In this document: positions 5,546-32,000 of the stretch, piece by piece
Numbering within the stretch: position 1 is the first letter of the stretch
Layout of the letters: every line of letters starts with the position of its first letter
Assembly: GCF_000253055.1 (NCBI RefSeq)
Contig: NC_016070.1
Span: 810,001-842,000 of the forward strand
DNA length: 32,000 bases
Direction: 5' to 3'
Source: Thermoproteus tenax Kra 1
GTDB lineage: Archaea; Thermoproteota; Thermoprotei; Thermoproteales; Thermoproteaceae
Notes under the pieces: generated by a model
Databases searched by the model: none
Told to the model about the DNA's origin: nothing
What the model saw: the letters and a program-made list of their open reading frames with translations, nothing else
Translations under genes and position numbers: made by a program

Positions 5546-5673
5546 AGGCTAATAATGGTCCCCTCTTATAAAGTGTCCGCCCACTAGAGGCTTAACGCCG
5601 GACCTGCCTCGGCGCCCTGGAGCCTGAGGGATCAGGCATATGTTGTTTTTATTGACACAACGGTAACCTGAAC

Positions 5674-9463: not shown

Positions 9464-9676
9464 CTTTTTCTTCTTCCAATTCACTTCGTCCTCCAGATAC
9501 CATTCAACTATCAATTCGCGGGCTTCGGCCATTAGCAGAGCTGCCCTATATGCTTTATCCCACGAACGGCTCTTGTACTCTATGTTCCATCCAGCTTGAA
9601 CTAATCTATCAACATCGCGAAGACGACCAGTGACAAAAACTCTCCCCTCCCTCTTGTTGCTCAAGACCCAAAACAT
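9437..9676 (-). CDS. small hypothetical protein (79 aa)
   Basis: ATG-started ORF whose promoter side abuts the AT-rich island. Its 3' end overlaps the aminotransferase stop by 27 nt in convergent orientation. No recognisable motif. Confidence 0.35.
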   Translation of the reverse strand: MFWVLSNKREGRVFVTGRLRDVDRLVQAGWNIEYKSRSWDKAYRAALLMAEARELIVEWYLEDEVNWKKKKLARFQSIR

Positions 9677-9880
9677 GAATATTTATCGATGGTAGTTTAT
9701 AAGAAATCTTTTTTATACACGTCCATTAATCAAGAAAAATATCTTTAAAACTATTAATAATTATGTATATTTTAAAAGAATTATAGCTCCAATTAACTTA
9801 ATTACATATATTGGAGTATTATCATTAGTTTTTAGTAGACTATAAAAACAGACATAATATTAGAGTATTACAATTGTTGG
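9677..9880. other. extremely AT-rich intergenic island (~200 nt) between divergent genes
   Basis: My hand count of line 9721-9780 gives about 15% GC, against a GC-rich background. The island holds many TATA-like runs and an imperfect 17-nt direct repeat (9810-9826 ATTGGAGTATTATCATT; 9859-9875 ATTAGAGTATTACAATT). Confidence 0.8.
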
Positions 9881-10041
9881 ACGACCTTCGTTTAGGCCGT
9901 TTCTTCCTTAGACCTTCCTCGCTTCCTCTAGCCCTAACGGAAATCTGGATGATTCCCACTATAGCCGCGGGAAAATGGAACAAGCTCGGTCAAAAGGCCC
10001 TCGATATAAATGCTTAAAAACTGCGGGTTATGAAAATGAAA

Positions 10042-10138
10042 GGGCCCGTAGCTTAGCCAGGTTGGAGCGCCCAGGGGACAGAGCCCCCGCGTATGGCTGA
10101 TAACCGGGAGGCCCCGGGTTCAAATCCCGGCGGGCCCA
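10042..10138 (+). tRNA. tRNA-Ile (anticodon GAU) with a 22-nt intron at a non-canonical position (about 29/30, in the anticodon stem)
   Basis: Folded by hand. Acceptor GGGCCCG/CGGGCCC plus discriminator A; D arm GCTT-AGCCAGGTTG-GAGC; T arm CCGGG-TTCAAAT-CCCGG. The anticodon arm CCC[aggggacagagcccccgcgtat]GG-CTGATAA-CCGGG forms only after removing 10073-10094. CCA is not encoded. Confidence 0.85.
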
Positions 10139-10249
10139 CTATAGTCTTTCTAGTCGATAGCGGTTGTTCAACCAGAGACCGTAGATGTTTCCACAGCCGC
10201 CGCAGCTCCTGACGGTGCCTTCACCCGACGGCCATGACCTCCAAAGGCA

Positions 10250-16198: not shown

Positions 16199-16603
16199 TT
16201 ATTTTACGACCAAGACGCTGATATCGCTTTCTTGAAGTAGTCTGGAGGCGACGCTGCCCAGGATAGACCTCCTTATAGTAGATAAACCTCGGCTTCCGAC
16301 AACTATTAGATCGGCCTTGACCTCTCGCGCGAACGCCACTATCTCGTGGGGCGGATCTCCCTCGAGCAGCTTCGTCTCTGCGTTAGGGAGCAGAGACTTG
16401 GCCTCCCTTAATGCCCTCTCGCCGTCATCGCGCAGATATTTTAGGAAACTCGCCGAGAACGCCTCTGAGAGCGATCCCAGAGCTGTGTCGACCACATAGA
16501 GCACGTAGACTTTAGAGCCGAACCTCTCTGACAGAGCCTTGGCGAACTGTAGCGCCTTTTTTGCGTGTTGTGAGCCATCGTATCCGACCACAATAACTTG
16601 CAT
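16199..16603 (-). CDS. universal stress protein (UspA family)
   Basis: Uses the inner ATG (16603) of track ORF 16199..16744. MQVIVVGYDGSQHAKKAL... and the ATP-binding motif VVGSRGLSTIRRSILGSVASRLL. TTTTTTAATAAT lies about 25 nt upstream on the minus strand. Confidence 0.85.
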   Translation of the reverse strand: MQVIVVGYDGSQHAKKALQFAKALSERFGSKVYVLYVVDTALGSLSEAFSASFLKYLRDDGERALREAKSLLPNAETKLLEGDPPHEIVAFAREVKADLIVVGSRGLSTIRRSILGSVASRLLQESDISVLVVK

Positions 16604-16681
16604 GAGGAGGAGACGTTTTCCATTATTAAAAAATCTCGGTCCTGCTTGCCGTCCATTTCTGGGCGTCGCAGCCGACGTCGT

Positions 16682-16725
16682 GCCAGCCACTTCTGCCTCG
16701 CCCGCGCCTTTCCCGACAGCCCAGT
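16682..16725 (+). repeat. copy 1 of a perfect 44-nt direct repeat
   Basis: GCCAGCCACTTCTGCCTCGCCCGCGCCTTTCCCGACAGCCCAGT is identical base for base to 17840-17883. The flanks do not match. Confidence 0.95.
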
Positions 16726-17061
16726 GGTCTCTAGCGTAGATCACGGCACTAAGAGTTATTGCTCACTCCGAGCTCAAGGCACGGCCCCGTCGTCGCAAGC
16801 ACCTTGTGCACGCCATTAGGCTCTCTGTGCTCCAAAACGCCTAATTCCTCCACTGTGAAACAGAGCATTGTCTCTGGGAACACAAGGCGTATCCTCAGCG
16901 CAGATCCTCAAACCGCCAGCCGGAGCACTCCGCAGGCGGGGCACGTCCCTGGGCAATCCCATGGCGTTACAATTGAAATTACAACTCTCTAGGGCGGGGA
17001 AGGGGCCATCAAAGGGTGAGCCAGCCAACAACCTTTTAAAGAGGGCCTCAGATCCTCGCGC

Positions 17062-17739
17062 ATGAACAAGAACGGCATTATCGTCATGATATCCATCCTT
17101 CTGATAACAGTCGGAGTTCTGGTGTTGGCTCTAGGTCCCTACGAGAAGGGGCCCAAATACAAGCCGTATTGGGAGCAAGTCAATATAACCGCTCTGGCTG
17201 TACAAGGCCAGAATTTGGGTGTGGTAGTAAGCAGGGGAAACGGCGGTTGGGCTATTTTCGGCTACCTCGACAACATAACTATGCCTCAGAGGAGCCAACT
17301 CTTGGAGACGTTGCGACTTCTGGTCGCCGAAGCTGAACAATATAACTACACAGTTGTGTTGATACCGTGGGGGGCCGACAACAAGACTAACGCGGTTCTC
17401 TCGGCACTATATTCGGGCGCGTTGAGCCCGACACAATACCTCAACGGCTATGTGAATATCACTACGCAGATAGATCAGAACAGGATCAGTCAAGCTCAAG
17501 CCTACGCCTTGGAGTTGGACCAAGAACTGGGAAGCTATGAGGCGTATCCTGGTATACCGCTCATTCCCACGAGCCCTCCCACCATTTACGCCTATATTGT
17601 GAGGTCTGGGTGCTCCTACCCCGTGTACGAGCCCTATCAACCATTGAGAGATACAAGCTACATGAGCTGGGCCCGTTGGGTTCGCAACGCCTTGGCCAAC
17701 TTGCCCACACTTGTCGGCCAGCCGGGTTGTGTCTGGTGA
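17062..17739 (+). CDS. membrane-anchored or secreted glycoprotein-like protein (225 aa), function unknown
   Basis: N-terminal hydrophobic segment IIVMISILLITVGVLVLAL and several N-x-S/T sequons (NIT, NIT, NYT, NKT, NIT). It is the only gene between the two 44-nt repeat copies. Confidence 0.6.
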   Translation: MNKNGIIVMISILLITVGVLVLALGPYEKGPKYKPYWEQVNITALAVQGQNLGVVVSRGNGGWAIFGYLDNITMPQRSQLLETLRLLVAEAEQYNYTVVLIPWGADNKTNAVLSALYSGALSPTQYLNGYVNITTQIDQNRISQAQAYALELDQELGSYEAYPGIPLIPTSPPTIYAYIVRSGCSYPVYEPYQPLRDTSYMSWARWVRNALANLPTLVGQPGCVW

Positions 17740-17839
17740 TCGCTAGACGTAGATAGGGTCTATCATCTGAAGAGCCTACGCGTCTCTCGGCAGTGGGAGC
17801 GCGTTGCGAGCCTGAGCTCGCCGCCCATCCCTAGGCGCC

Positions 17840-17883
17840 GCCAGCCACTTCTGCCTCGCCCGCGCCTTTCCCGACAGCCCAGT
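17840..17883 (+). repeat. copy 2 of the perfect 44-nt direct repeat
   Basis: Identical to 16682-16725 and located 1158 nt downstream of copy 1. Confidence 0.95.
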
Positions 17884-18077
17884 AGGATCGGGCGCAAGGG
17901 AGCCAGATAGCGCGCCCTCCTCAATTGAGGCGGGTCCCTCGCTGTCAAGCGGACACGCGAGCCGCGCGATCGCCAGGGCCGACGACCACGAAGAGAAAAC
18001 TGCTGCTCCAGCGTAAAAGGAAAGGCATTTCGGGCCATGTAGAGAGGAGAATTAAAAATCTCGGCTTCAAGATTTTC

Positions 18078-19162
<1,085 letters not shown>

Positions 19163-19262: not shown

Positions 19263-19820
19263 GTGGAGCACATCTCCCTCCTCAGGCTTGTGGACGTCGT
19301 ACATGCACTCTTTGCCATGGAGCGCGAGCCCTACGCCTACGAGGCATTCATACGCGCGGCGAACAGCTGGGCCCTAAGGGCTTTGTCCAACGCGCCGGGG
19401 AGAGACTTGAGAGCCAAGGCGTGTAACGCGCTGGGACAGTCCTTGGGTAAGCTGATATCTCAGCTCAGGGCGCCCAGTGTGCTGAAGATCCCCTGCTCCA
19501 TCAGACAGGCGTTGAACATAGATCGAATAAAGTACACAGGATGCCCTAAGTTTCTGGCCGAGTGGGGGGCGGAATACGTCTATAGGCTCGTCTACGACGA
19601 GAGACTGAGGCGCTTAGCTATAAAGAGTGCCATGAGGAACCTATCGCTGTATGCGCACAAGGGACTAAGAGTGGAGGGAGCGCACGCCTCGGAGTGGCTC
19701 GCCGAGGACGCGGTCTCCGCCACGGGCAGTGTAGAGTGGAAGCCGTATCTAAAGAGGCTGTTGTCGGACATATTGCCCCTGTGCCAAGAAGTCGGAGCTC
19801 TCTTGGAGTTAGAGGGATGA
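19263..19820 (+). CDS. hypothetical protein (185 aa)
   Basis: GTG-started ORF immediately after an AT-rich island. Helical, Arg/Leu/Ala-rich. Its stop overlaps the next ATG in an ATGA arrangement. No motif recognised. Confidence 0.5.
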   Translation: MEHISLLRLVDVVHALFAMEREPYAYEAFIRAANSWALRALSNAPGRDLRAKACNALGQSLGKLISQLRAPSVLKIPCSIRQALNIDRIKYTGCPKFLAEWGAEYVYRLVYDERLRRLAIKSAMRNLSLYAHKGLRVEGAHASEWLAEDAVSATGSVEWKPYLKRLLSDILPLCQEVGALLELEG

Positions 19821-20530
19821 AGGTGAAGGTGGATATTTTGGCAGTGAGGGAGGCCGAGCTGTTGGTTGAGAGGTTGAGGTCTGCCGGAGCTGTGGTGGTC
19901 GACCCCTACCCTGAGGCGATCCCCACGCTGCTTCAAGACAAGCTGTTGTATCTCTCGTCGTCTATATACGGCAACCTCAGCCCCCTTCCGCTCTTTGAGT
20001 TCGGAAAGGGAGGCAGACGTTATGTTCTTTCGAACAGAGTTCACGCGGAGCTGGCCGAACTTCTCCCGGACCTAAAGGTGATCCACGTAGACGTTAGAGA
20101 GGAGGCGCTCTACCCCTTCGCGGCCTTAGCGTTGGTGTTAAACGATTTGGGCCTCACGCGGCTCAATAGGAAGTTCTTGAACGAGTACGTCTGTCCGGAG
20201 ATACAACAGCTGGATCAGGACGACGTTCCTCTGGCCCGAGAAATAAGGGAGGTGCTCTCGAAGTACTTCAAGCTCTGGCGTCGGGGAACATTGTGGAGGC
20301 TCTGCGGCCTTGGGCCCATCAACGGAGAGAAAAGCGATATAAATATAGATACCATCGCGGTCCGCATCGTCGAGAGCAATAGAAAGTTAAAGCCGAGCAT
20401 ATCGGTGGACGAATTAGAGATAGGCCTAAGAGGTGAGGACAAGGCGTTGTTGGCCAGAGTCGCGAGGGGGCTGAGGATACCAGGCTTTAGGGCAGAGCTG
20501 GAGGAGCTCCTCAGGCGTTATGATTTATAG
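19817..20530 (+). CDS. hypothetical protein (237 aa)
   Basis: Uses the inner ATG at 19817 of track ORF 19694..20530, which forms an ATGA overlap with the upstream stop. The protein starts MKVKVDILAVREAELL... No motif recognised. Confidence 0.55.
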   Translation: MKVKVDILAVREAELLVERLRSAGAVVVDPYPEAIPTLLQDKLLYLSSSIYGNLSPLPLFEFGKGGRRYVLSNRVHAELAELLPDLKVIHVDVREEALYPFAALALVLNDLGLTRLNRKFLNEYVCPEIQQLDQDDVPLAREIREVLSKYFKLWRRGTLWRLCGLGPINGEKSDINIDTIAVRIVESNRKLKPSISVDELEIGLRGEDKALLARVARGLRIPGFRAELEELLRRYDL

Positions 20531-20764: not shown

Positions 20765-21469
20765 ATGGGCGTCAAATTTGCAATAGTCTACTCGGTCGAC
20801 GGCGGAGTGGGGAAGACGACTTTAGCCACCGCGATAGCTTTAGAGAAAGAGCGCGTGCTACTGATAGATGCCGACTGGGAGAAGGCAGACCTCTCGGCGT
20901 TGTTCGGAGCTCCGAGGAGACCCGGCTGGCTCTCCGGCTATTATGGCAAAGACGTATATTTGCATAAGGTAAAACCTAACATATATTTGTTACCAGGCTT
21001 TGATGCGGCGGCCTTATATCAACGGGGGGACATGACCGACGCCGAGCTTTTCGACGCGTTGTTTCAAGTCCTCTCGGCGTTGCCGGACGCAGTGGCCGAG
21101 GAGAGACTGCCAGTGGACACAATCGTCGTGGATACTCCCAAGGCCCCGCAGCTAACGTGGATTGAGAAGCTCCAGAGGAGACTTAAGGCACAAGCGTTCT
21201 TTATCGCCGATAGACGGCTCGTGGTCAGACTTGCAGACGTCAAAATGCAGATCTACGGCAAATACATGCGTTATGCCTCCCTCGTCGTAGCGAACATGTT
21301 GGAGAAAGAGGACGAAAAGATGCCGGGAATCAAGATGATGAACGCTTACCTTAACAGGGTTAAGATGCCCTCAGAGTACACCGCCGAGGCGGTCCACAAG
21401 AGCTTGCTCTCCAACAGGAGGAATAAGGAGGCGGTTCGTATGTTGGTGCGTTGGATTAAAGAGAGATGA
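20765..21469 (+). CDS. ParA/MinD/CpaE-like SIMIBI-class P-loop NTPase
   Basis: Uses the inner ATG (20765) of track ORF 20684..21469. MGVKFAIVYSVDGGVGKTTLATAIA (Walker A), LLIDAD (A'), TIVVDTP (Walker B). Its stop overlaps the next ATG (ATGA at 21466). Confidence 0.8.
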   Translation: MGVKFAIVYSVDGGVGKTTLATAIALEKERVLLIDADWEKADLSALFGAPRRPGWLSGYYGKDVYLHKVKPNIYLLPGFDAAALYQRGDMTDAELFDALFQVLSALPDAVAEERLPVDTIVVDTPKAPQLTWIEKLQRRLKAQAFFIADRRLVVRLADVKMQIYGKYMRYASLVVANMLEKEDEKMPGIKMMNAYLNRVKMPSEYTAEAVHKSLLSNRRNKEAVRMLVRWIKER

Positions 21470-23097
21470 GCTTGGCGGGGGCCCTATTGGCAGAGACGGA
21501 CAAGACCCTCATCGCCCGTTGCGTTGTAGTCAAGAGGGGAGTTATTGTGCACGGGAACTATGCTACAGATACCTGTATAACAGAGGACGGCCAGTACGTC
21601 ATCATAGACCCCGAAGTGCCTGAGCCCTTAAAGAGAGCCCTCGCATTGGCGACGCTCAGAGGAGCCATCCCTCCCGACTACCAGGAGTACGATAGAGCCA
21701 TGCGCGATGCCTTAGCGGTCCTGGCGGACGGCCGGAGCCTCCTCGCATGGAGAAAGAGGAGGGATATGCTCCGCCTCTACAGAGAGTACCGCCCATTGGT
21801 GCACTACATACTCGATCGATGGACAGGCCATGGGGAGCTGGGAGGCTACGGCGTATTAGAGCCCCTCTTGAGGGACGACCTCCTCACAGAGGTGGTTGTG
21901 CCTCAGCCGCTTGCGCCTCCAATGCGCTGGACAGAGCTACCGAAGAGCCCGCGGCAGTTGCTCGATAAAATATACGCAGAGGTCGTAGAATTGGGCAGGT
22001 TCAGAAGAGTGGTAGCCGTGAGGAACAACGCGAGGATGCCCACGAACGCTGTCGTGCCGGAGGCCTTCATGCCCCTTTTGGTGAAGAAGCTCATCCCGAG
22101 CCTCACTCTTGAGAGGCCGTTTCAGACCCGCGAGGATCCAGTCTACAGAATACGTATAGCGGCCGATCTGCTTGAGTATAATATTAATATCAGAAAGATG
22201 AGCGAGGTGCCGAGACCGTCTCCATCGCTCCTAAAGACCTATCTGGTGGCGCCCAAGCCTCCCCAAAACGGCGCCGCTATAGCGGCGGAGCTCAAGGGGC
22301 TGGAGCTCTTCGCCCTCGCCACTATAGCGGCGGAGGCAAAGTGGACTGTCGTCTTCTCTGGGGCCATGGGGACGGGCAAAACTACCCAACTCAACTTGCT
22401 CCTCTACTTCACTCCTCCTTGGATCCAAGTGGTCGTCATCGAGAGAGGCGCCAGGGAGGTGTGGGCCCCTCTGGAGGATCAGATATTGCACATATCGGTG
22501 CCCTCTGAGGCGAAGCTAGAGGAGGCCCTCGATCAAGCGCTCCGATATGGCACGATGGAGAGCATCATAGCGTTGGCGGAGGCGCGCACGGCGCGGGAGC
22601 TCAACACGCTCGTGTCGTACAAGCTCACAGGCCATGGGGGGCTGACAACGATTCACGCAGACACCATACACGATGCGCTTCTGAGGATTACTAGGTCAGG
22701 CGCGCCCTCAGAGGCTCTGGCCAATACTCTTATACTACAGCTGGGCGTCTCCAACGCCGTCAGATACTTAAAGGAGTGGAAGGCGTTGATCGCAAAGGGC
22801 GGCGAGGTGGCCGAGGCTTCGGGCCCAGAGGTTCTAGCCGCTTTGGAGGGATACACGAGGGCGGTCTACGCGACCTCAATACTGGAGGAGATCAAACTGA
22901 GGGTCGAGTTGATCCGCGCAGTAGCCGAAAAGGAGCTGGAGCCGCTCGAAGCTCGAGAGAGGATCGTGAGGCTATTCAGACGGAGGAGGACGTCAGTTAT
23001 ACAAGAGGCGTTCAAGTTCGGCTATTCATATTTACGTGAGGTTGAAAATCCAACACAACAAGGAGGAGCAAGCCGCCGGAGCGACAGACCTGTTTAA
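21466..23097 (+). CDS. type IV filament / secretion ATPase of the FlaI-TadA-VirB11 (GspE) superfamily
   Basis: 543 aa. Walker A FSGAMGTGKTT; Asp-box-like VVVIERGAREV; Walker-B-like ESIIALAEARTARE; His box TGHGGLTTIHADTIHDALLRI. A long N-terminal domain of about 290 aa resembles that of FlaI. Confidence 0.88.
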   Translation: MSLAGALLAETDKTLIARCVVVKRGVIVHGNYATDTCITEDGQYVIIDPEVPEPLKRALALATLRGAIPPDYQEYDRAMRDALAVLADGRSLLAWRKRRDMLRLYREYRPLVHYILDRWTGHGELGGYGVLEPLLRDDLLTEVVVPQPLAPPMRWTELPKSPRQLLDKIYAEVVELGRFRRVVAVRNNARMPTNAVVPEAFMPLLVKKLIPSLTLERPFQTREDPVYRIRIAADLLEYNINIRKMSEVPRPSPSLLKTYLVAPKPPQNGAAIAAELKGLELFALATIAAEAKWTVVFSGAMGTGKTTQLNLLLYFTPPWIQVVVIERGAREVWAPLEDQILHISVPSEAKLEEALDQALRYGTMESIIALAEARTARELNTLVSYKLTGHGGLTTIHADTIHDALLRITRSGAPSEALANTLILQLGVSNAVRYLKEWKALIAKGGEVAEASGPEVLAALEGYTRAVYATSILEEIKLRVELIRAVAEKELEPLEARERIVRLFRRRRTSVIQEAFKFGYSYLREVENPTQQGGASRRSDRPV

Positions 23098-23317
23098 CGA
23101 TACAAGCGAAGGCCTGGACGACATAGGGCACAAACAGAGCGCGGACAGCTGGGCCTTAGACTTCATAAAGTCGTTGGAGAGAGCCCCTAGGGAGGTCCTG
23201 GACAAACTGGGCCCGGAGGTGCTTGAGGCGGCCCTGCGCGAGGCGGCCAACTTGGACGGCGACGCCGGCGTAGTGGCTCGCCTCGCTATAACGTTGTTGA
23301 GGAGGTGCAGAGGATGA
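23036..23317 (+). CDS. small soluble acidic helical protein, unknown function
   Basis: Track ORF with a GTG start that overlaps the ATPase end by 62 nt; the true start may be later. No hydrophobic segment. Its stop overlaps the next ATG (ATGA at 23314). Confidence 0.35.
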   Translation: MRLKIQHNKEEQAAGATDLFNDTSEGLDDIGHKQSADSWALDFIKSLERAPREVLDKLGPEVLEAALREAANLDGDAGVVARLAITLLRRCRG

Positions 23318-23700
23318 GGGAGTGCGAAAAATTGATCGATGAGGGATATACGAAGGAGGCGGCAGAGGAGCTGTGCGAGACTGCTAAGGCTCTGGGCATA
23401 AAGCCCGCCAAACTGATAGCGGCGGCCAGAAGGCTGGAGAGGGAGGGAATCGCGTTGACGAGGGAGGACTGGCTTGTCGTTAAAGACGTCATGAGCAAGG
23501 GCTACTCGCTCGGCACAGTGGTGGACTACATAATAAAGAGACATAGATCGGGACTCTCGGCCAGACAGATAATAGAGGAGCTCCCTCTGGCGGCGAGCGC
23601 CTCCGCGAGGAGGGCGCACATACTGGGCAATCTGATAAAGTTGCTCCACGCGCCGGAGTGGTTCATTGCTGAGAACAAAGAGGAGGGTAAAGCGCGATGA
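23314..23700 (+). CDS. small soluble protein (128 aa), possibly with two helix-turn-helix-like repeats
   Basis: Uses the inner ATG at 23314 of track ORF 23305..23700. Two similar segments are present: GYTKEAAEELCETAKALGI and GYSLGTVVDYIIKRHRSGLSARQIIEEL. Its stop overlaps the next ATG (ATGA at 23697). Confidence 0.5.
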   Translation: MRECEKLIDEGYTKEAAEELCETAKALGIKPAKLIAAARRLEREGIALTREDWLVVKDVMSKGYSLGTVVDYIIKRHRSGLSARQIIEELPLAASASARRAHILGNLIKLLHAPEWFIAENKEEGKAR

Positions 23701-24917
23701 ACAGAGAGGAGTTCTACCTGCTTGCAGCGCCCGTCTTTGCCACGTATTTGGCCAGAGTATCCTCTCAAGAGGCGCTCCGCTATACGGCCTCGGCGTTGGA
23801 GGACGTGGATGAGCGCCACTCGAGAGAGCTCTTGTTGACAAGCCTCACGCCAAACCCTGGCCCCAAGCTCGTCGAGGACAAGCTGCCTGTCGTGAGACAA
23901 TTCGGCTTTGCTGTATCTCAAGAGGAGGCCGGAGTGCCCAAGCCGGTCCTCGTTTCCTCCTTCCTCTCAAACCTCAGGGCATACGCCGTGGGCAAACTTG
24001 AGGCGGCCATGCAACAGTTCACGGGGCTTTTCTCAGCTATGGCCAGCATGATGTTTGCTCCGTTGCTGCTCCTGTTTCTCTACGCCTACGGTCTCTTCGG
24101 GATCAACCCGACGGAGCTCTACTCATTGGGCGCCCTTATCTCTTTGTTGATCTCGCTCCTGATATATAGGGCGATGCCTAAGGACCTCTCGCCGAGAGTC
24201 TACGGCCCGTCCCTCCCTCTGGCCATCGTCGCGGGCGCCGCCGTGGGCGCGTTGGCCTACAACTACGCGCTGCCGCTAGCTCTGGCGCCTCTTGTCGCCG
24301 GCGCCGTCCTTACCGCGTGGCTGTTGACGACTAGGAGGATCCGTTGGTACTCGCTGGCTCTGGAGGTGCCGCCCATGCTCCGCGACTTCGCCTCGCGCCT
24401 ATCCCAAGGCGTGCCGCCAGATTTGGCTATGAGGGAGGTGGCCGCCACATACAAGAGCGCCTGGATGATAGCCTACTTCTATAGCATTCCATCTCTGCTC
24501 TACTCCGTGGCCAAAGCCATGTATATGGCGATCTCCTGGGCCGGCCCCAACCTCGAGGCAGTGGACTACCTCCAAGCGCTCCTCAACGAGCGCGAGAGGG
24601 CCATGAGGAGGGTGACATCGCTGGCCTTCATATTCATAGCCGTCTACCTCGGCGCCTCTCTCCTGTTGGCCTACTCCCTCGATATATCTACTACTGCGCT
24701 TCAGACTGTGCCGTCCACCGGGCAGGCCATCCTCTATCCTGTACCTCCTCAACAGGCGGAATATGTCGTAGCACAGCTCTTGTCTCTTATGACAGCAGGA
24801 TTTCTATTCTCAGTGCTGATGCCCAACCGCGGCGCATGGCTCTCTCTATCTGTTGGCGGAATCGCCGGAGTTGCCCTCTTCTATTCACTAGGCTATCTGT
24901 GGGCTATATGGGCGTGA
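23697..24917 (+). CDS. polytopic membrane protein, candidate FlaJ/TadC/GspF-like platform
   Basis: 406 aa. A soluble N-terminus of about 95 aa is followed by 7-8 hydrophobic segments, for example MFAPLLLLFLYAYGLFGI, LPLAIVAGAAVGALAY, LAFIFIAVYLGASLLLAY and SVGGIAGVALFYSLGYLWAIW. Its position right after the ATPase is typical for platform proteins. Confidence 0.65.
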   Translation: MNREEFYLLAAPVFATYLARVSSQEALRYTASALEDVDERHSRELLLTSLTPNPGPKLVEDKLPVVRQFGFAVSQEEAGVPKPVLVSSFLSNLRAYAVGKLEAAMQQFTGLFSAMASMMFAPLLLLFLYAYGLFGINPTELYSLGALISLLISLLIYRAMPKDLSPRVYGPSLPLAIVAGAAVGALAYNYALPLALAPLVAGAVLTAWLLTTRRIRWYSLALEVPPMLRDFASRLSQGVPPDLAMREVAATYKSAWMIAYFYSIPSLLYSVAKAMYMAISWAGPNLEAVDYLQALLNERERAMRRVTSLAFIFIAVYLGASLLLAYSLDISTTALQTVPSTGQAILYPVPPQQAEYVVAQLLSLMTAGFLFSVLMPNRGAWLSLSVGGIAGVALFYSLGYLWAIWA

Positions 24918-25423
24918 GGGGCCTTATATCCTTACGCTGGCTGATAGTCTCAGCTGCGACCATCGCTGCCGTCGCCGCGCTGGCGCTGGCGCAGTATCAC
25001 GCCATGAGCGAGGCGCGGTCCAACTACCCGCTCCTCGCGTTGGCGCAAGCTGTGAGAGACCTGACCTCCGTCAGCCTGCCGGACTACGTCAGAGTTTACA
25101 CTATAGAGGTGCACTACGTATATACAAGCGGTAGATGGGCTCTGGAGCCGGGCCCATCGCCGCCCAACTGCTCCAGCTGTATTCCTCCGCGCGGTTGGCT
25201 CTACTCTGTGTCGTTCGGCGCCAACGCGACGCCGCCCTTCGGGGCTACATACACCGTCGAGAACGCCACGCTCCTGTTGGGGGAGTCGCTCGTCGTTCCT
25301 CCCTATTGGGAGAACGCCACGCTCCTCTACCTCTATCCCACATGTCGAGGCGGCTTTAACTTTAAGTTCCAGAGGACAGAGGCCTTCGATGGAGTTGCGT
25401 TAATAATAATCCAGTGCAGTTGA
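24908..25423 (+). CDS. pilin-like protein with a class-III-type N-terminus
   Basis: Uses the inner ATG (24908) of track ORF 24836..25423 and overlaps the platform gene stop. MGVRG|LISLRWLIVSAATIAAVAALALA fits the [KR]-G-[hydrophobic] pattern followed by a hydrophobic helix. Sequons NCS, NAT, NAT, NAT. Confidence 0.55.
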   Translation: MGVRGLISLRWLIVSAATIAAVAALALAQYHAMSEARSNYPLLALAQAVRDLTSVSLPDYVRVYTIEVHYVYTSGRWALEPGPSPPNCSSCIPPRGWLYSVSFGANATPPFGATYTVENATLLLGESLVVPPYWENATLLYLYPTCRGGFNFKFQRTEAFDGVALIIIQCS

Positions 25424-25531
25424 CGGCTCGTCCTAGGCGGTTGCCACCATGCCTTTAAGCTCGTAGAACCATCCCCAACTTCTGGACTGGCTGTTAGCAC
25501 CAGAGAGGGTCGGAAGACTCAATATTTTTTC

Positions 25532-26026
25532 ATGCACTCAACACAAAATAAGGTCGGGAAGATCGTTGGAAGGAAGCTGAGGGGCCAATCAGGGGGTATC
25601 GACGCATTAATAATATTGGCTATCGTGATAGCGGTAGCCGCTATAATAGCGCTAGCCATTATGAGGATGGGCCAGTCGGCCGCCTCTGCAACGAGAGCGC
25701 AAGTGTTGGCCACCGTGGGAACCCACTATATGACAGTGGAGGTTCAAGTTCTGTCTGGAAAGCTCAACCAACTGTATGTACAGTACTGGCCTGAGAACCA
25801 GCCGAATAATATAGCGAACACTCCAGGTTCCTGTTATACTAATTCGACGGGCTCTACTCCAGTGAGCTCTACCGGCCTCTCCTTATACTCGGGCCAGTCG
25901 GCGGTGTGTTACTTCCCCTTGTCGACTACGCCGGGGGTTCAGTACAGCTACGTCATCATAGGATACGACGCAAACGGGAGAGTGATCCAGCTCTCGAGGG
26001 GCGTCTTCACGGCCGGCGCCAGCTAG
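25532..26026 (+). CDS. pilin-like protein with a class-III signal peptide; candidate major subunit
   Basis: The leader MHSTQNKVGKIVGRKLRG|QSGGIDALIILAIVIAVAAIIALAI is basic and is followed by a hydrophobic helix. It is the only gene in the cluster preceded by a >100-nt gap, and it is followed by a double T-tract. Confidence 0.65.
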   Translation: MHSTQNKVGKIVGRKLRGQSGGIDALIILAIVIAVAAIIALAIMRMGQSAASATRAQVLATVGTHYMTVEVQVLSGKLNQLYVQYWPENQPNNIANTPGSCYTNSTGSTPVSSTGLSLYSGQSAVCYFPLSTTPGVQYSYVIIGYDANGRVIQLSRGVFTAGAS

Positions 26027-26047
26027 GCGCGAACTTCGCGCAATCCC

Positions 26048-26062
26048 TCTTTTTTAATTTTT
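26048..26062 (+). terminator. double oligo-T tract after the candidate major pilin gene
   Basis: TCTTTTTTAATTTTT lies 22 nt after the 26026 stop. Confidence 0.35.
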
Positions 26063-26335
26063 GTGGACGTAGATGTATATGCTATGGTCGTGATCCTCGC
26101 TATAGCCTTGGTCATAATAGCGATGGTTCAGCCCTTCGGCTACAACGGCCCCTCCCTCTCGGCAATCTATAGGTATTGGCCCCAGTACTACAACTTCACT
26201 GTATCAGGCGACGTCAACAAGCTCTTCTTTGTCAAATATATGACCTGTTGGATCTACAACGGCAGTTGGACGCAGATATCCAACGCAGGCGGGCTCGGAC
26301 TGGCGACGCACGTGGCCAACTTGATCTGCCGCTAG
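26063..26335 (+). CDS. small N-terminally anchored protein (90 aa)
   Basis: GTG start. MDVDVYAMVVILAIALVIIAMV forms a hydrophobic helix but has no K/R-G motif. Sequons NFT and NGS. Confidence 0.45.
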   Translation: MDVDVYAMVVILAIALVIIAMVQPFGYNGPSLSAIYRYWPQYYNFTVSGDVNKLFFVKYMTCWIYNGSWTQISNAGGLGLATHVANLICR

Positions 26336-26348
26336 ATCCATTTTTGAT

Positions 26349-26687
26349 ATGAGGGGCCAAGGTGAACTTGTGACAATCGCCGCGATGCTTGCGGTTGGAG
26401 CGATGGCAATCCTCATAATTCAATCGGTAGCTCATGCGACCTCGTGGGAGCTCTGCAAGGCGGCGGCTCTAGCCCTTCAATACAACGGCTCGGCGTTCAG
26501 AGTGGAGTCTCTGGCATCGGCCCGGTGCTCTCCCTCAGGTTGCCAACTGAGTTGCGGGCTGTTCGTGCCTGCAGATAGAGTATTATATGTAGAGGGACGT
26601 CCGGCGCTGGGAGGCCTCCCTGGCGTCGTCATCGTGGGGTCAACACCCGACGGAAAACTGTATATAATTCCAGTTGTAGAAGGCTAA
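26349..26687 (+). CDS. pilin-like protein with a class-III-type N-terminus
   Basis: MRG|QGELVTIAAMLAVGAMAILII. Confidence 0.55.
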   Translation: MRGQGELVTIAAMLAVGAMAILIIQSVAHATSWELCKAAALALQYNGSAFRVESLASARCSPSGCQLSCGLFVPADRVLYVEGRPALGGLPGVVIVGSTPDGKLYIIPVVEG

Positions 26688-26734
26688 AGCGCTAACTCTA
26701 TAGGGCCACGAGCACGCACATATTTTTATTTTTC

Positions 26735-27154
26735 ATGAAGGGCCAACTCTCCGCTCCTGTGGCGGCCGCGATATTCGCTCTGGGGACCTCCATCTTAATA
26801 CTGGCGGCCATACTTAAGGTGGAGTCTGTGGCCTTGAGCCGGCACCTCGCCCCTCTGCCGCCAGCGGCCGAGGCAGGCGTCCGCTGGATCCACGTGCTGA
26901 ACTGCTCTGGCACTCTGATAGCTGTGGACGCAGGGACCTCCAACGCAAGTCAGGCGGAGGAGCTGGTGGGTTTGAGCTGTCGAGACCTAGCCTCATTCGA
27001 GCTGTGGCCCGGCGGTTACTCGTGCAACGGGACTGCAAGAATAGGGCCGGACCCCTTCACAGGCCTCTGGTGTCCTCCGCTCAAGATGCCTGACGGCAAG
27101 TGCTCCTCGGGGGTCCTTGTCTCAGAGGGGAGGTTTCTCTTGGTTCAGTGTTGA
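26735..27154 (+). CDS. pilin-like protein with a class-III-type N-terminus
   Basis: MKG|QLSAPVAAAIFALGTSILILAAIL. Several Cys residues and sequons (NCS, NAS, NGT). Confidence 0.6.
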   Translation: MKGQLSAPVAAAIFALGTSILILAAILKVESVALSRHLAPLPPAAEAGVRWIHVLNCSGTLIAVDAGTSNASQAEELVGLSCRDLASFELWPGGYSCNGTARIGPDPFTGLWCPPLKMPDGKCSSGVLVSEGRFLLVQC

Positions 27155-27155
27155 T

Positions 27156-28409
27156 ATGGACTTCGAGCTGCTGACTGCGGCTACCGCCGTGGTTGTCGGA
27201 GCGCTTCTTGCGGCCGCCTTCCTTATCCGTCCGTTGCCGCCTCCGGCGGCCTCCCTCTGCTCCGACTGCGAGTTCTCTATCAAGGGGCCTGTCTCATTCG
27301 CTGCGTACAACGGCTCCAGCTATCTGTTGGCGGGAGGAGGGCCGCTTCCACTCGCCCAGTACGCCTGGGCCTACTATGTTCACGGAGGCGTCGCGACGCC
27401 GTTGAGCCCGGGGCAGATGGTCGTCTGTCCCGACTACGCTTTTGTGAAAGTGGTAGACGGCGTGGCCTTCTTCTCCTGCAACGGCACAGCGGGGGCGAAT
27501 GTAGTCCAGAACGTATGGGCGCCGGCCGCAACGGCGCCGAGCCTCACCTCGACTTGTTCAACTACTGAGTGGAAAGAGAGTATATACAAAAGCGCAGTGC
27601 CGAAATCAGAGAGCACAAAGATCTGTATACCGCTGTTTGGCGGCGGTACACGGTGTTACTATCCTAGCGACACCGTATATGTCGGCATAGCCTCCGCGTA
27701 TAACAACTACAGCTATGCGCTGGCCCCATTTCCGTGGGTGAACGTCACTTACGTCGCTCCTTGGTACGACAACGGGACATATAAGGTCAGGACTATCGTA
27801 GTAAACCAGAGCATCGCCGTTGTAGTTAAAGTCGGCTACTACGTGGCCAACAGACTGAGGAATCCATATCGGTCAGCCGGCGCAGATGTGTATATGTCGG
27901 TCTTTACGCCGAGCCGGAGCAAGTTGACCTCCATGTGTTACTGGTATCTAGGCATGACCCCTCTAGGATGCGGCGACTGGTTGCCGGCTGGTGCGCTCCC
28001 ACAGCCGGCTATAGACCTCATAGAGAATTCCGTAGTCTCAAATGGAGGTGGATGGTGGTTTTACGACCTCTACGAATACGCGGTGTACGGCGGCATTAGT
28101 GGAACGAACAAGCTACTTCAAGCAACTCAAGTGTCCCACTCTACGTCGTGGTCCCTTCCCTCAGGTACTGCCACGTTGGCGTATAACGCGACTACGGACG
28201 TAATATCCGCGGCGTTCCCCAGATATGCTGTAACGTACGTGGGGTCACAGTACGGCATATCGCCGCCCTCCAATGGCACATATTACGCCGTGGTGGGGGT
28301 ATCTAGCAGCGGCGTGCCCGCGTCAATCTCGTACTACAACGTGACAGTAATAGGGCGAAGTACAATATGTGTGGAGGCCGTCCCAGACTCGCTCATACCG
28401 GTGCCATGA
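27156..28409 (+). CDS. large N-terminally anchored, Cys- and sequon-rich extracellular protein (417 aa)
   Basis: Uses the ATG at 27156, 1 nt after the upstream stop. The track's TTG start at 27117 would overlap the upstream gene by 38 nt. MDFELLTAATAVVVGALLAAAFL, about nine N-x-S/T sequons by eye, and many Cys/Tyr/Trp residues. Confidence 0.6.
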   Translation: MDFELLTAATAVVVGALLAAAFLIRPLPPPAASLCSDCEFSIKGPVSFAAYNGSSYLLAGGGPLPLAQYAWAYYVHGGVATPLSPGQMVVCPDYAFVKVVDGVAFFSCNGTAGANVVQNVWAPAATAPSLTSTCSTTEWKESIYKSAVPKSESTKICIPLFGGGTRCYYPSDTVYVGIASAYNNYSYALAPFPWVNVTYVAPWYDNGTYKVRTIVVNQSIAVVVKVGYYVANRLRNPYRSAGADVYMSVFTPSRSKLTSMCYWYLGMTPLGCGDWLPAGALPQPAIDLIENSVVSNGGGWWFYDLYEYAVYGGISGTNKLLQATQVSHSTSWSLPSGTATLAYNATTDVISAAFPRYAVTYVGSQYGISPPSNGTYYAVVGVSSSGVPASISYYNVTVIGRSTICVEAVPDSLIPVP

Positions 28410-28978
28410 AGGGCCAGTGGTCGATCGCGTTCGCGTTGGTCGCTTTGGCGATAGTTGCCTGGACTATAACGGCGGTCTACCTCGCGTCCCCCAAGTACAT
28501 GCCGCTTGATACATCGGAGGAGCTCTATCTGCTTAAGCTCAGCGCCGTTCACGCCATTCAGCAGATCTATTGTACAACGTACAGTGCGTCAGGCCTATCG
28601 GTCTACTGCGACGGCCGCCCGTTTTTCTTTGGGCCCAACGAGTCTGTCATCATCTTCTACGACGGGAGGCCCGTGGCGGCGCGGCTCTCGGCGGCAAACG
28701 GCGCCGTCAACTACACGCTCTTTGTTGCGCTTCAAGCATCTGTCCCGGCCGTTAGCCAGACCGGCCAAGGCGTAAGAGCTGCCTACTTTTCAGTATACTC
28801 GACCCTCGACTTCCTGCCAGAGCTACAGGTGAACGCCACTCACGTCGAGTACGTCTATCTTCGGCCGAACGGCTGGTACTACCAACCCAGCCTGACCTAT
28901 CTGTTGGTTGTTGAGAATGGAACTGGCGTCCGCATCGTCGACTACCCCGTCGTGTTGAACTTGAGCATAGTGGGATAA
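28406..28978 (+). CDS. pilin-like protein with a class-III-type N-terminus
   Basis: Uses the inner ATG 28406 of track ORF 28367..28978, giving an ATGA overlap with the upstream stop. MKG|QWSIAFALVALAIVAWTI. Sequons NES, NYT, NAT, NGT, NLS. Confidence 0.6.
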   Translation: MKGQWSIAFALVALAIVAWTITAVYLASPKYMPLDTSEELYLLKLSAVHAIQQIYCTTYSASGLSVYCDGRPFFFGPNESVIIFYDGRPVAARLSAANGAVNYTLFVALQASVPAVSQTGQGVRAAYFSVYSTLDFLPELQVNATHVEYVYLRPNGWYYQPSLTYLLVVENGTGVRIVDYPVVLNLSIVG

Positions 28979-28985
28979 TTTTTTC

Positions 28986-31900
28986 ATGAGAAGGAACCCC
29001 CTGATCGTTGCAACTTTGTTCACAGCGGCGCTGATAGCTGCAGTACTGGCTGCTACATTCGTCAGAGCGTTCCAGTCAACCGCTACTTCCTCTAGCTCTA
29101 CCAGGTGCGTCTGGAACGTCATTTACACAACCTCGAACACGCCGGTGGTCTCGATTGCAGTGCCCGTACACGTCAGCTTGACGTTCTTGGGGATACCAAA
29201 GAGTGGCTCCTACCTGGTGGCAGACACTAACCCCATCACTGTTGGCGCAAGCCCAATGCCCACCGACGGCAAATACTTGATCAATATAACGTGGACGTTC
29301 TATACATATACTTACAACTACACTGTATATCGGAACAACTGCACTCTGCAGACGAACGCGGTGTTGGCCATAACGTCCGCCGGAGTCTCGTCGAACGGTT
29401 CGTACTCTACGGGCTGGCAACCGGTGCCGGGCACCACCGCCTCGCTCTCGTACACAATAGTGGGCTACGGAAGCCCATCGATAAGCCAGCTACAGAGCGA
29501 GGGGGCCTTTCCATACGGCATCAACCAGACCGTGGGCGCCCCTCCGACGGACCAGATCGTTGTAGCTACGGCCGAGAAAAACACAGAGCTCAGCGGCTTC
29601 AGACCTGGATCGCGGAACGCGGGGAAGATGGGCGTGAGCGTCACAGTGCCGGACGTCCAGCTAGTAGTGGGCGACGGCGCCCAGGGGCTCGCAGAGAACC
29701 CCTTCGGGACCCAGTACAGCGCGCCTGGGGGTACGCCGTATTGGAGCTACAGCGGCGCGGACGGCAGACTCGTTGCCCAGTACAACTTGCGGAATCAATT
29801 CCCCTCCAGTATATCGCTGGACGTCTGGTACATCCCGCCGGAGTGGAGCTACACCAAGCTGGAGTCGAGCACCGCGCCGGACTATTCGGCGGAAGCATTT
29901 ACACAATCGCCCGGCGGCTCTTGTGATATGGACGTCTATGGTCTCGCTACTTATGGTCTAATTGTATACAGCTGCTACGCGATGATTGGGATAGGCAAGA
30001 ATGCTAGTGCGACCGTCGAGATTCCTGTAAACTATACTTTTCTCGACACTCTTCTCAATAATGCAACGCTCTTCAACGACTACGTGATCAACACGTTCTT
30101 CTCGACAGTAGTGGGCAAAATTGCTCAAAGTGTTGCAAAATACTTTGCAAATTCAGGTATAAACAACCCGCCGTATAGGGTTATAGGAGGTCCGTTCTCA
30201 GCAGGCAACCTTCATGGTTTTAGTTATAACCAGTTCGGCGAAATTAGCGGATTTCTCTTTGACTATTCGTACTACTATATATCCAGCTCTTTTAATTATT
30301 GGGGACTTCCATTTACAAATATATGGGCCTTTATCCCCTATGGCGCGCTAGTCCGCGGCGACATCATCACAGTGCAGTACCCCGTGGGGGGCATCGTCGA
30401 CATGATGTCTGGAGCTGACAAGGCTGGGTCACTGGTGTCCATCGGAGCCTGCGGCTTCGAGGTGCCCACCGGCTACGCGAGCGGGCTGAACTATTCGGCG
30501 TGGAACGGGACGAGTCTAGAGCTGGGCGGCAACAAGACCGGCGAGGAGCTAGTGCTGTACCCGATGGCCCAGTTTGCCCCCCAGTACGGCCCCAACTGGT
30601 TCGGCGATCTTGCCCTCTATTCGTGGCTCTATCCTCAGGCCGATTCGCCCAAAGAATCGGCGTCAGGACAGTTTGTCTCAGTCTTAAACACGACGTGGAC
30701 CGCTCAGTTCATAATCGGCAAGACGGGCGAAGCGCCGATAATAACGTCGCAGTCTGTAGGGAAAGTGGCCTCCTGGAACCAAGCTGATGCAATACCGCAC
30801 ACCGAGTATGCCGACATACTCTACCACTACGCCCCAACGTGCGTCCCGCCGCAGGCGAACAACGGAGGCGGCGGAGGCAGCGGCATAGTGGTGGGCCCGC
30901 CTCCTACACCGCCGCCCCCGCCCGGAGGCACGCCCACTAAAGACGGCATAATTCTATGGGAGTTGGTCCCCCTCGTGGCCTGCAAATCGCTCTTCTGCGA
31001 GCCGGCCAACGCCTGGTGGAATGGGCACTACACCGGCGTCTACGCCCTCCCGAACATAGCGTACGGCATCGCCGTAGAGTGGACGGGCAGCTCTCCGACA
31101 AACGTCACTATATACGTCGACTCGCCCTTGGCCAGGTTCATCAACGGCTCTTGGATCCACGGGAGCCCGCTGACGATGAAGGTGTTCGGGAGGGCGGTAG
31201 AGGCGTTCAATCTGACTCTGGGCACGTTCGAGCTCGACCCCGGCGTCTGGTACCTCGTGTTGCCCGGCCGCGCGGTCCCGCTCGGGAACGGGCCGGATCC
31301 GCCGCAGACCTCGGGCTGGTCGGCCGTGCCGCCCGCGTGGTTCATTTCGCCGCGCTGGAGCTCCAACGGGACGCGGGATGTGCACTTCCTGTGGTTCAAA
31401 GTGGGGGGCGCTCTGTATGGGGACACCTACACGGTCGTTGTGCCGGACGTGCTCTACAGAGTCGACAACAACTTCACAAAGATCGCAACGCCCGAGAGCG
31501 AGGTCAGACTGCTCCTCTATCTGCCTACCGGGGGATGGGCCACCTATCCGCCCAACTACGTCGGCTATACGCCCAACGACACGCGGCTCGGCCTATTGCC
31601 CTTCAGGTCCTACACCGGCGGGTACGAGTACTGGACCGGCTTTGAATACGACGACACGACCGCCTTCGCGGGCTCGTTGGCTGCGGCGGGGAGGCTGTTC
31701 AATCTGACCCTCGGGGGCCAACCGGTGCTCAACGCCACAGTGGAGCAGATAGACGTGAGGGCCGCCGTCGAGGTGGGGCCCTCGGGCGTCTCAGTGGAGT
31801 CGAGCGACCCAGCCGACACCATCGGATACTACATCTACCTCCGCCGCAACGGGACGTGGGTTATGCGGGCCTTCTGCCCCGGCTCACAGATCCAGCTTCC

Positions 31901-32000
31901 GCCGAACCTCACCATATGGCCGTGGGACCCCGCGCTGGTGGTGCCGGCAGTATATCACGTCGGGAGGATCCGCGAGAACGGCACCATACTCTATCCAGTG
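28986..32000 (+). CDS. giant secreted/surface protein (>1005 aa), truncated by the right window edge
   Basis: Absent from the ORF track because it has no stop in the window. I translated frame 28986 codon by codon to 32000 and found no stop. N-terminus MRRNPLIVATLFTAALIAAVLAATFVRA is signal- or anchor-like. About two dozen N-x-S/T sequons by eye. A Gly/Pro hinge NNGGGGGSGIVVGPPPTPPPPPGGTPT spans 30858-30938. All other listed ORFs in this span are in other frames or antisense. Confidence 0.75.
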   Translation, partial: MRRNPLIVATLFTAALIAAVLAATFVRAFQSTATSSSSTRCVWNVIYTTSNTPVVSIAVPVHVSLTFLGIPKSGSYLVADTNPITVGASPMPTDGKYLINITWTFYTYTYNYTVYRNNCTLQTNAVLAITSAGVSSNGSYSTGWQPVPGTTASLSYTIVGYGSPSISQLQSEGAFPYGINQTVGAPPTDQIVVATAEKNTELSGFRPGSRNAGKMGVSVTVPDVQLVVGDGAQGLAENPFGTQYSAPGGTPYWSYSGADGRLVAQYNLRNQFPSSISLDVWYIPPEWSYTKLESSTAPDYSAEAFTQSPGGSCDMDVYGLATYGLIVYSCYAMIGIGKNASATVEIPVNYTFLDTLLNNATLFNDYVINTFFSTVVGKIAQSVAKYFANSGINNPPYRVIGGPFSAGNLHGFSYNQFGEISGFLFDYSYYYISSSFNYWGLPFTNIWAFIPYGALVRGDIITVQYPVGGIVDMMSGADKAGSLVSIGACGFEVPTGYASGLNYSAWNGTSLELGGNKTGEELVLYPMAQFAPQYGPNWFGDLALYSWLYPQADSPKESASGQFVSVLNTTWTAQFIIGKTGEAPIITSQSVGKVASWNQADAIPHTEYADILYHYAPTCVPPQANNGGGGGSGIVVGPPPTPPPPPGGTPTKDGIILWELVPLVACKSLFCEPANAWWNGHYTGVYALPNIAYGIAVEWTGSSPTNVTIYVDSPLARFINGSWIHGSPLTMKVFGRAVEAFNLTLGTFELDPGVWYLVLPGRAVPLGNGPDPPQTSGWSAVPPAWFISPRWSSNGTRDVHFLWFKVGGALYGDTYTVVVPDVLYRVDNNFTKIATPESEVRLLLYLPTGGWATYPPNYVGYTPNDTRLGLLPFRSYTGGYEYWTGFEYDDTTAFAGSLAAAGRLFNLTLGGQPVLNATVEQIDVRAAVEVGPSGVSVESSDPADTIGYYIYLRRNGTWVMRAFCPGSQIQLPPNLTIWPWDPALVVPAVYHVGRIRENGTILYPV

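Follow-up and report, generated by a model that had tools for sequence, protein, structure and literature searches.

Operon TTX_0962-0973 of Thermoproteus tenax Kra 1, a predicted type IV filament system of the archaeal subclade 4G

We describe here a cluster of thirteen genes (g01 to g13) that runs from position 20765 to the end of a 32,000-nucleotide (nt) stretch of the Thermoproteus tenax Kra 1 genome (NCBI RefSeq assembly GCF_000253055.1, contig NC_016070.1, positions 810,001 to 842,000, forward strand). This whole stretch is called the window, and positions are counted from its first letter unless stated otherwise. The cluster is almost certainly the T. tenax Kra1 operon TTX_0962-0973, a representative of subclade (or subsystem) 4G of the archaeal type IV filament superfamily. 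We identify it as such because five window proteins, in an exact-sequence look-up, are identical to the T. tenax Kra1 entries CCC81604, CCC81612/WP_052883115, CCC81614, CCC81616, and CCC81618, and because coordinates and arCOG numbers correspond gene by gene with the gene table in the supplement to the 2011 genome paper (PMC3189178), in which the genome coordinate equals the window coordinate plus 810000 for every tabulated gene. The same paper counts TTX_0962-0973 among three operons that "might constitute type IV pili assembly systems", assigns each tabulated gene its arCOG (in the range arCOG05608-05619, including 05616, as well as 07478), reports that T. tenax has no flagellar operon, and names TTX_0979 as a candidate prepilin peptidase (PMC3189178). 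Subclade 4G itself, the Pyrobaculum-Thermoproteus branch, was defined by Makarova et al. in 2016 (PMC4858521), with the T. tenax locus among its listed members. A 2026 preprint, which uses the name "subsystem 4G", notes the MinD-like ATPase and a large Ig-rich, adhesin-like arCOG05616 protein, and states that the function is unknown. An initial annotation, made from the window sequence, had recognised a type IV filament-like cluster, and that reading holds; it had also suspected an undescribed apparatus, which the proposals of 2011 (PMC3189178) and 2016 (PMC4858521) contradict. A known family with the same accessory genes has indeed been catalogued, but it has not been characterised by experiment: literature searches by locus tag found no experimental study of TTX_0962-0973, and the cluster is, as far as these searches show, already known as a computational prediction and experimentally uncharacterised. 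The cluster was read correctly, but as its annotation dates from 2011 and its classification from 2016, it is not a discovery.

The operon is co-directional, coupled, and conserved; its products include an ATPase of the FlaI/GspE type, an NTPase resembling MinD, a polytopic membrane protein, seven pilin-like proteins of which one is PilA-like, and a giant secreted glycoprotein. In the 4G inventory of 2016, two ATPases, one distinct and diverged (arCOG05609) and the other of the FleN/MinD kind (arCOG05608), stand beside a TadC that is likewise diverged (arCOG05611), a major pilin of the PilA family (arCOG05612), many minor pilins with conserved cysteines, two large proteins, and two small alpha-helical proteins of the cell interior (PMC4858521). 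Every membership feature is matched in the window: the ATPase, the MinD-like ATPase, the TadC-like protein, the pilins, the secreted proteins, and the two small helical proteins. Other 4G loci (for example Pyrobaculum calidifontis YP_001055219-232 and P. aerophilum PAE2402-2410) hold the same families one for one (arCOG05608-05612, 05614-05619, and 07478), with arCOG05613 present in the P. calidifontis locus and absent from the T. tenax cluster, and with different upstream soluble genes in the Thermoproteus and Pyrobaculum loci. What is new in our analysis is minor and stays within this known system: an unannotated gene (g03), an aspartate in place of the signature lysine in the MinD-like protein, minor pilins without leaders in Pyrobaculum, a presumed platform protein that no test connected to T2SSF, and an apparent shift of the label given to TTX_0964.

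A scan of genome contigs with single sequences found no related locus, whereas an alignment-based scan of species-representative genomes recovered 14: three from Thermoproteus/Thermoproteaceae (L001-L003) and eleven of the Pyrobaculum type (L004-L014). An additional Thermoproteaceae contig, L028, was reached via a homolog of g05. All thirteen genes have orthologs among 14 related loci (tblastn, blastp). The comparison of gene neighbourhoods that had been suggested for the cluster shows a collinear order in the Thermoproteus-type loci (L001-L003 and L028, at 28-72% identity) and a rearranged one in ten Pyrobaculum loci, where g06, g08, and g09 come after the gene for the large protein g13 instead of before it. 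Orthologs of g01 occur in 14 of the 14 related loci, those of g04 in 13, and those of g05 in 12 (33-63% identity); g02 is 49-54% identical to its Pyrobaculum orthologs. Pyrobaculum oguniense TE7 (CP003316.1) carries two complete 4G copies (L005 and L014), about 130 kb apart.

The list of open reading frames (ORFs) with their translations bears out thirteen + strand genes from 20765 to the window end, and the junction sequences bear out the four ATGA start/stop overlaps at 21466, 23314, 23697, and 28406; a fifth, upstream of the cluster, lies at 19817. From the ATGA overlaps we take the operon to be translationally coupled. In addition, g05 and g06 overlap by 10 nt, and g03 overlaps the 3' end of the ATPase gene g02 by 62 nt. 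The T-tract gaps that had been noticed are there as well, as T5-T7 runs 1-12 nt before the starts of g07, g08, g09, g10, and g13. The oligo-T runs at 25521-25531, 26047-26062, 26340-26344, 26721-26733, and 28979-28984 each abut a start codon within the operon; they could be partial archaeal terminators tuning the ratio of ATPase/platform to pilin transcripts. The cluster ends with g13 both in L028 and in T. tenax, and the window therefore covers all of it apart from the last 36 codons of g13. In L028 the next gene, on the other strand, encodes a uracil phosphoribosyltransferase, and the arrangement in T. tenax is identical.

The ATPase gene g02 (TTX_0963, arCOG05609; 21466-23097) encodes a protein of 543 amino acids (aa). 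Both motifs on which a FlaI/TadA/VirB11-type ATPase had been proposed were located, the Walker A motif GAMGTGKTT at residues 299-307 (nt 22360-22386) and the His box GHGGLTTIHA at residues 389-398 (nt 22630-22659), and the Pfam model T2SSE scores 42.8 bits against a cut-off of 24.9. Relatives scoring 286-855 bits are confined to Thermoproteus and Pyrobaculum, the next score being 44 bits for bacterial CpaF. A g02 profile run against the PDB retrieved Archaeoglobus GspE (afGspE, 2oap) with 51.9 bits, FlaI with 32.8, and CpaF with 31.3. The AlphaFold2 model (predicted local distance difference test score, pLDDT, 83) gave the same order in Foldseek, with full-length alignments to 2oap (E 5e-17), FlaI (about 1e-15), and CpaF (4e-12), followed by PilF and VirB11. 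The corresponding NCBIfam models score far lower than their cut-offs (FlaI 22 bits vs 550, BasE 35 vs 1000, TadA-family 30 vs 373). By profile and model, g02 is an archaeal FlaI/GspE-type assembly ATPase. In the structure-based clustering of the 2026 preprint, the 4G ATPases separate from those of the archaellum.

Directly upstream of g02, and joined to it by an ATGA overlap, stands g01 (TTX_0962, arCOG05608, FlhG family; 20765-21469), which encodes a MinD/FleN-like P-loop NTPase. Its earlier designation as ParA/MinD-like was sound: Pfam CbiA scores 26.7 bits, just over the cut-off, NCBIfam gives weak matches to MinD, ParA, and BcsQ, and the best match among solved structures in a PDB profile search is archaeal MinD (1g3q, 27 bits). 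The annotated start is at 20684; the orthologs start at the Met of 20765. The Walker A motif is atypical (DGGVGKTT, nt 20798-20821), and the form S[VL]DGGVGKTT occurs in 15 of 15 orthologs, with Asp at the position of the signature Lys. This lysine defines the ParA/MinD ATPases, and type 1 McdA provides a precedent for a ParA-like protein that lacks it (PMC7182216).

Two small soluble proteins and a Cys-rich protein of 417 aa had also been listed, and all three are present (g03, g04, and, further downstream, g11). The 93-aa acidic soluble protein g03 (23036-23317, GTG start) has no entry in the gene table of 2011. It has tblastn matches at E 1e-17 to 1e-22 in L001-L003, is annotated as an 87-aa gene in L028, and has a counterpart at the same position in the Pyrobaculum loci (hhalign probability 70%, E 4e-5); together with g04 it makes up the pair of small helical cytoplasmic 4G proteins, and it is conserved but unannotated in T. 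tenax. The first of the pair, g04 (TTX_0964, arCOG05610; 23314-23700), is a soluble helical protein of 128 aa without a transmembrane helix, whose gene shares ATGA overlaps with both neighbours; weak hints of an Lrp/MarR-type helix-turn-helix (E 0.02-0.07) appear among matches to designed helical proteins.

The presumed platform ("diverged TadC") is g05 (TTX_0965, arCOG05611; 23697-24917), a polytopic membrane protein of 406 aa. It has about seven transmembrane helices and cytoplasmic helical bundles at residues 1-105 and 215-300, and its AlphaFold2 model is all-helical (pLDDT 90). Two bundles, separated and followed by membrane helices, make up the general FlaJ/TadC/PilC layout. Of the platform-like protein with seven to eight transmembrane helices in the initial annotation, the helices are there, but T2SSF homology was not found. 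The family of 13 members has no T2SSF match in Pfam, nor has its profile one among PDB sequences, and HMMER, run exhaustively with a profile over 1.84 billion representatives, returned 11 matches (representative clusters), all in-family. Foldseek with the model against the PDB gave nothing below E 0.07, the best platform match being the PilC model 3jc8_Ca (E 0.88); hhalign comparisons with seven verified T2SSF proteins, drawn from bacterial Tad loci and an archaeal one, yielded a probability of about 1%, and self-comparison detected no internal repeat. Either g05 has lost all detectable similarity to T2SSF, or it is not homologous to T2SSF; we infer its platform role from its position, its topology, and the 2016 assignment. 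The 2011 gene table calls the soluble 128-aa TTX_0964 "membrane component, FlaJ/TadC family" and the polytopic TTX_0965 merely "predicted membrane component"; the FlaJ/TadC label looks displaced by one gene, from TTX_0965 to TTX_0964.

Seven genes for pilin-like proteins follow. The predicted major pilin of the PilA family is g07 (TTX_0967, arCOG05612; 25532-26026), whose N-terminal region contains KLRG/QSGGIDALIILAIV (here and below, the slash marks the predicted cleavage). Its N-terminal pattern [KR]G-x(2,3)-[IV][DE]ALL, with an acidic residue at +5/+6, is conserved together with the hydrophobic helix, and so are Cys101 and Cys126. Pfam Pilin_N was matched at E 0.0023, below the cut-off, and the archaeal pilins 9myg and 8gi2, its top PDB matches, weakly at E 0.07-0.4. 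The profile searches that had been recommended for the cluster thus lifted T2SSE and CbiA above their cut-offs, but left Pilin_N below and T2SSF without any match.

The others are g06 (TTX_0966, arCOG05617; 24908-25423; N-terminus MGVRG/LISLRW), g08 (TTX_0968, arCOG05618; 26063-26335; 90 aa), g09 (TTX_0969, arCOG05619; 26349-26687; 112 aa; MRG/QGELV), g10 (TTX_0970, arCOG05614; 26735-27154; 139 aa; MKG/QLSAP), g11 (TTX_0971, arCOG07478; 27156-28409; 417 aa with 10 Cys and an N-terminal anchor helix), and g12 (TTX_0972, arCOG05615; 28406-28978, annotated start 28367; MKG/QWSIAF), of which g06, g09, g10, and g12 are minor pilin-like proteins. All six combine a hydrophobic helix at the N-terminus with two to four conserved Cys and with N-glycosylation sequons. 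The conserved Cys are residues 145 and 169 in g06 (numbered from a start at 24911), 62 and 89 in g08, and 36 and 69 in g09, and number four in g10. A class III signal-peptide motif is present in g06, g07, g09, g10, and g12; at least five small proteins with K/R-G-Q had been claimed, and five are class III-like, but strictly K/R-G-Q stands before the hydrophobic helix in four of them (RG/Q in g07 and g09, KG/Q in g10 and g12), g06 having RG/L. The T. tenax genome paper reports g06, g07, and g10 as FlaFind-positive (PMC3189178). The sequence of g09 is identical to CCC81618.1, and the 112-aa T. tenax arCOG05619 protein figures in the 2016 census as YP_004892697.1 (PMC4858521). The hydrophobic helix of g08 and g11 is not preceded by a K/R-G motif, and both are leaderless in all loci. 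Most of the T. tenax minor pilins (g06, g09, g10, and g12) keep a very short K/R-G leader, in contrast to their orthologs in Pyrobaculum (L004-L014), which begin at Met directly with the hydrophobic helix and whose ORFs permit no longer N-terminus.

Only the N-terminal 110 aa of g11 align to its orthologs: residues 1-110 form a conserved CSDC domain, with Cys 35, 38, 91, and 108 conserved, and the C-terminal part is variable. Residues 245-398, approximately, of this part resemble the C-terminus of a separate pilin-like protein of 362 aa (tblastn E 2e-5), which relatives encode between g10 and g11 (L028:13582-14670). This resemblance points to domain shuffling among the surface components.

The last and largest gene, g13 (TTX_0973, arCOG05616), starts at 28986 and continues past 32000. 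It has 1005 codons in the window; the full gene encodes 1040 aa and ends at genome position 842108, 108 nt beyond the window. The surface protein of more than 1005 aa noted initially is real, with 23 NxS/T sequons in this large secreted glycoprotein, but its signal peptide is of the Sec type and not of class III. The protein also has a Gly/Pro-rich linker. A counterpart of 920-1050 aa with a Sec-like signal peptide is found in every 4G locus with enough sequence; these orthologs show no C-terminal transmembrane segment, carry a Cys soon after the signal peptide and, in most cases, another at the extreme C-terminus. No Pfam or PDB sequence match was obtained for g13, even with a nine-sequence profile.

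From these components we propose an adhesive type IV filament built by the 4G machine, on which g13 would be presented by the minor pilins. The g02 hexamer would dock on the polytopic g05, and ATP hydrolysis would lift pilin subunits from the membrane and polymerise them, with g07 as the filament-forming pilin. Leader peptides would be removed by TTX_0979, a peptidase A24A (arCOG02299) encoded at genome positions 847837-848421 on the opposite strand, past the window end and 5.7 kb downstream of g13 (PMC3189178). The six disulfide-containing pilin-like proteins g06 and g08-g12 may constitute a priming or tip complex that holds the Sec-exported, heavily N-glycosylated, and anchorless g13 at the filament end as an adhesin. 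Minor-pilin/PilY1 complexes and the pseudopilus tips of type II secretion systems are the models for such a pilin-held protein. In the type IVa tip as in that of the type II pseudopilus, several low-abundance pilins go together with a large non-pilin protein, exported by Sec, whose display requires them. The likeness is one of function; Pfam and PDB searches with g13 found no sequence relationship to these tips. Finally g01, with g03 and g04, may control where, whether, or how many machines assemble, by analogy with TadZ/CpaE in Tad pili. MinD-like ATPases are known to position both Tad pili (TadZ/CpaE) and archaella (MinD4) (PMC11407121).

Taken as a whole, we give this adhesive filament about an even chance of being right; several observations weigh against it. 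No 4G filament is known to have been seen, and the solved Pyrobaculum pili are assigned to other loci; g05 lacks detectable T2SSF homology in every test made; g07 matches pilin models just weakly; g01 departs from the deviant Walker A signature KGGxxK[ST], its fold family still being MinD-like; and the placement of g13 at a filament tip is a proposal by analogy. Moreover g08, g11, and the Pyrobaculum orthologs of g06, g09, g10, and g12 may not be peptidase substrates or classical pilins, because they lack the class III motif or the leader. The same features could fit a device of the pseudopilus type, comparable to type II secretion or the Sulfolobus bindosome, in which the seven pilin-like proteins would form a short piston or scaffold within the envelope that exports, positions, or anchors g13 in or beyond the S-layer. 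With one plausible major pilin among seven pilin-like proteins, several of them without leader peptides, with a highly atypical platform protein, with the Sec-exported and anchorless g13 as the sole conserved large partner, and with Pyrobaculum cryo-electron microscopy papers that describe pili of other loci and no 4G filament, this is the main rival; we nevertheless consider it unlikely, as g07 retains the features of a polymerising PilA-type pilin, no genes for substrate-binding proteins or cargo are linked to the locus as they are in the bindosome, and the ATPase is nearest to those that assemble pili and archaella, though compatible with both models. Rather unlikely, too, is that 4G is an envelope machine specialised in handling a single giant glycoprotein, g13, rather than an ordinary adhesive pilus, a thought prompted by the dissimilarity of g05 to T2SSF, by pseudopilin-like subunits in Pyrobaculum that may need no leader processing, and by a MinD-like regulator without the signature lysine.

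A filament serving twitching or gliding motility, or the exchange of DNA between cells, rather than adhesion has precedents: motility is reported in Pyrobaculum species that lack an archaellum operon (PMC10334743), the Ups pili of Sulfolobales exchange DNA (2026 preprint), and a MinD-like positioning ATPase would suit polar machines. The gene content lends these roles no support, there being no second (retraction) ATPase and no nuclease, helicase, or DNA-binding gene in the locus, and the 4G ATPases cluster apart from the archaellum ATPases (2026 preprint); we regard them as improbable. Hardly tenable any more is an undescribed apparatus (a filament, or a device for adhesion or uptake) that belongs to no known kind. 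Most components do lack a Pfam or NCBIfam family, and the accessory genes differ from those of the archaellum, Ups, and Aap, but annotation in 2011 was followed by classification under the same list of components in 2016 and 2026, and the locus is conserved across Thermoproteus and Pyrobaculum.

Among well-studied systems, the 4G locus would seem to work most like a Tad pilus in its operon logic, and the likeness is limited to that logic. As in Tad/Flp loci, one operon without a retraction ATPase holds a secretion ATPase and a platform, an NTPase resembling MinD, and a small major pilin with several minor pseudopilins, and CpaF is the best non-archaeal match of g02. The locus nonetheless falls outside the Tad group: g02 scores far below the TadA/CpaF family cut-offs, no T2SSF similarity links g05 to verified TadB/TadC, the signature lysine is missing from g01, the T. 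tenax locus has neither a secretin nor outer-membrane parts, and Tad has no counterpart of the giant secreted g13. With the archaellum, Aap, Ups, and the bindosome the window locus shares the FlaI/GspE-type ATPase fold and class III-type pilin N-termini; we rejected each of these identities, since matching families were missing and the FlaI and BasE scores were far below their cut-offs. No archaellum, Ups, or Aap family was matched by the window ORFs in Pfam, which agrees with the initial view that the accessory set is not that of these three systems. Specifically, the window ORFs have no archaellins, FlaH/KaiC-like ATPase, FlaF/FlaG stator, FlaX, or FlaCDE families in Pfam, which sets the cluster apart from the archaellum; the A24 peptidase is likewise missing among the large window ORFs, and the earlier statement that the window holds no archaellin, FlaH/KaiC, or prepilin peptidase was accurate. 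The P. arsenaticum pilus (6W8U) and the flagellar-like pilus of P. calidifontis (8FK7) come from the same organism family and have disulfide-stabilised, N-glycosylated pilins. The former was assigned to subsystem 4E (2026 preprint), and the locus of the latter has a KaiC ATPase (PMC10334743); a g07 profile run against the PDB retrieved neither pilin.

The Thermoproteales have the most diverse type IV pilus-like machines known in archaea, and none of the complex ones among them is known to have been studied by experiment. Subsystem 4G is the most elaborate, its single ATPase being accompanied by seven pilin-like proteins, a MinD-like regulator of its own, and a giant secreted glycoprotein. Knowing its function would reveal by what means hyperthermophiles that lack an archaellum attach, move, or interact, and it would test how far platform and minor-pilin modules can diverge.

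Upstream of the cluster, two more + strand genes encode soluble hypothetical proteins: u2 (TTX_0960; 19263-19820), of 185 aa, and u1 (TTX_0961; 19817-20530, in agreement with the T. tenax gene table), of 237 aa. They are joined by an ATGA overlap, the u2 start is preceded at a distance of about 20 nt by a TATA-like TTATATA, and neither protein has a Pfam match. A u2 ortholog adjoins the MinD-like gene in L001-L003 and L028 (51-56% identity), with the flanks beyond rearranged, and u1 is kept together with u2 in the Thermoproteus-type loci (43-49% identity). TTX_0960 and TTX_0961 probably belong to the cluster as its upstream members in loci of this type. Neither u1 nor u2 is significantly similar to the three conserved upstream ORFs of Pyrobaculum, which are candidates for arCOG05605-05607. 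Relatives carry an extra gene of 115 aa beside the TTX_0960/0961 counterparts, which T. tenax lacks and which likewise has no significant similarity to the three Pyrobaculum ORFs.

Among the sizeable ORFs, Pfam identifies housekeeping genes upstream of the cluster, among them ThyX, L15e, RNase P subunits, SufC/SufB, an aminotransferase, a beta-CASP nuclease, L24, AspRS, Usp, NUDIX, and PCMT. With such flanks, and with no VirB4, relaxase, or integrase found, a mobile-element or conjugation system was rejected. The block that separates AspRS from the cluster (16199-19162; Usp, a 225-aa ORF, NUDIX, and PCMT) has a rearranged and partly inverted order in L028 (L028:2851-5097); the cluster with TTX_0960/0961 retains its order there despite the rearranged neighbouring block. 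Finally, a tRNA gene of 98 nt lies at 10042-10139 (+), scoring 46 bits with the Rfam tRNA model; ARAGORN could not assign its amino acid, and it is probably an intron-containing crenarchaeal tRNA. It is situated within the lowest-GC part of the window (45.5% at 9001-10000).

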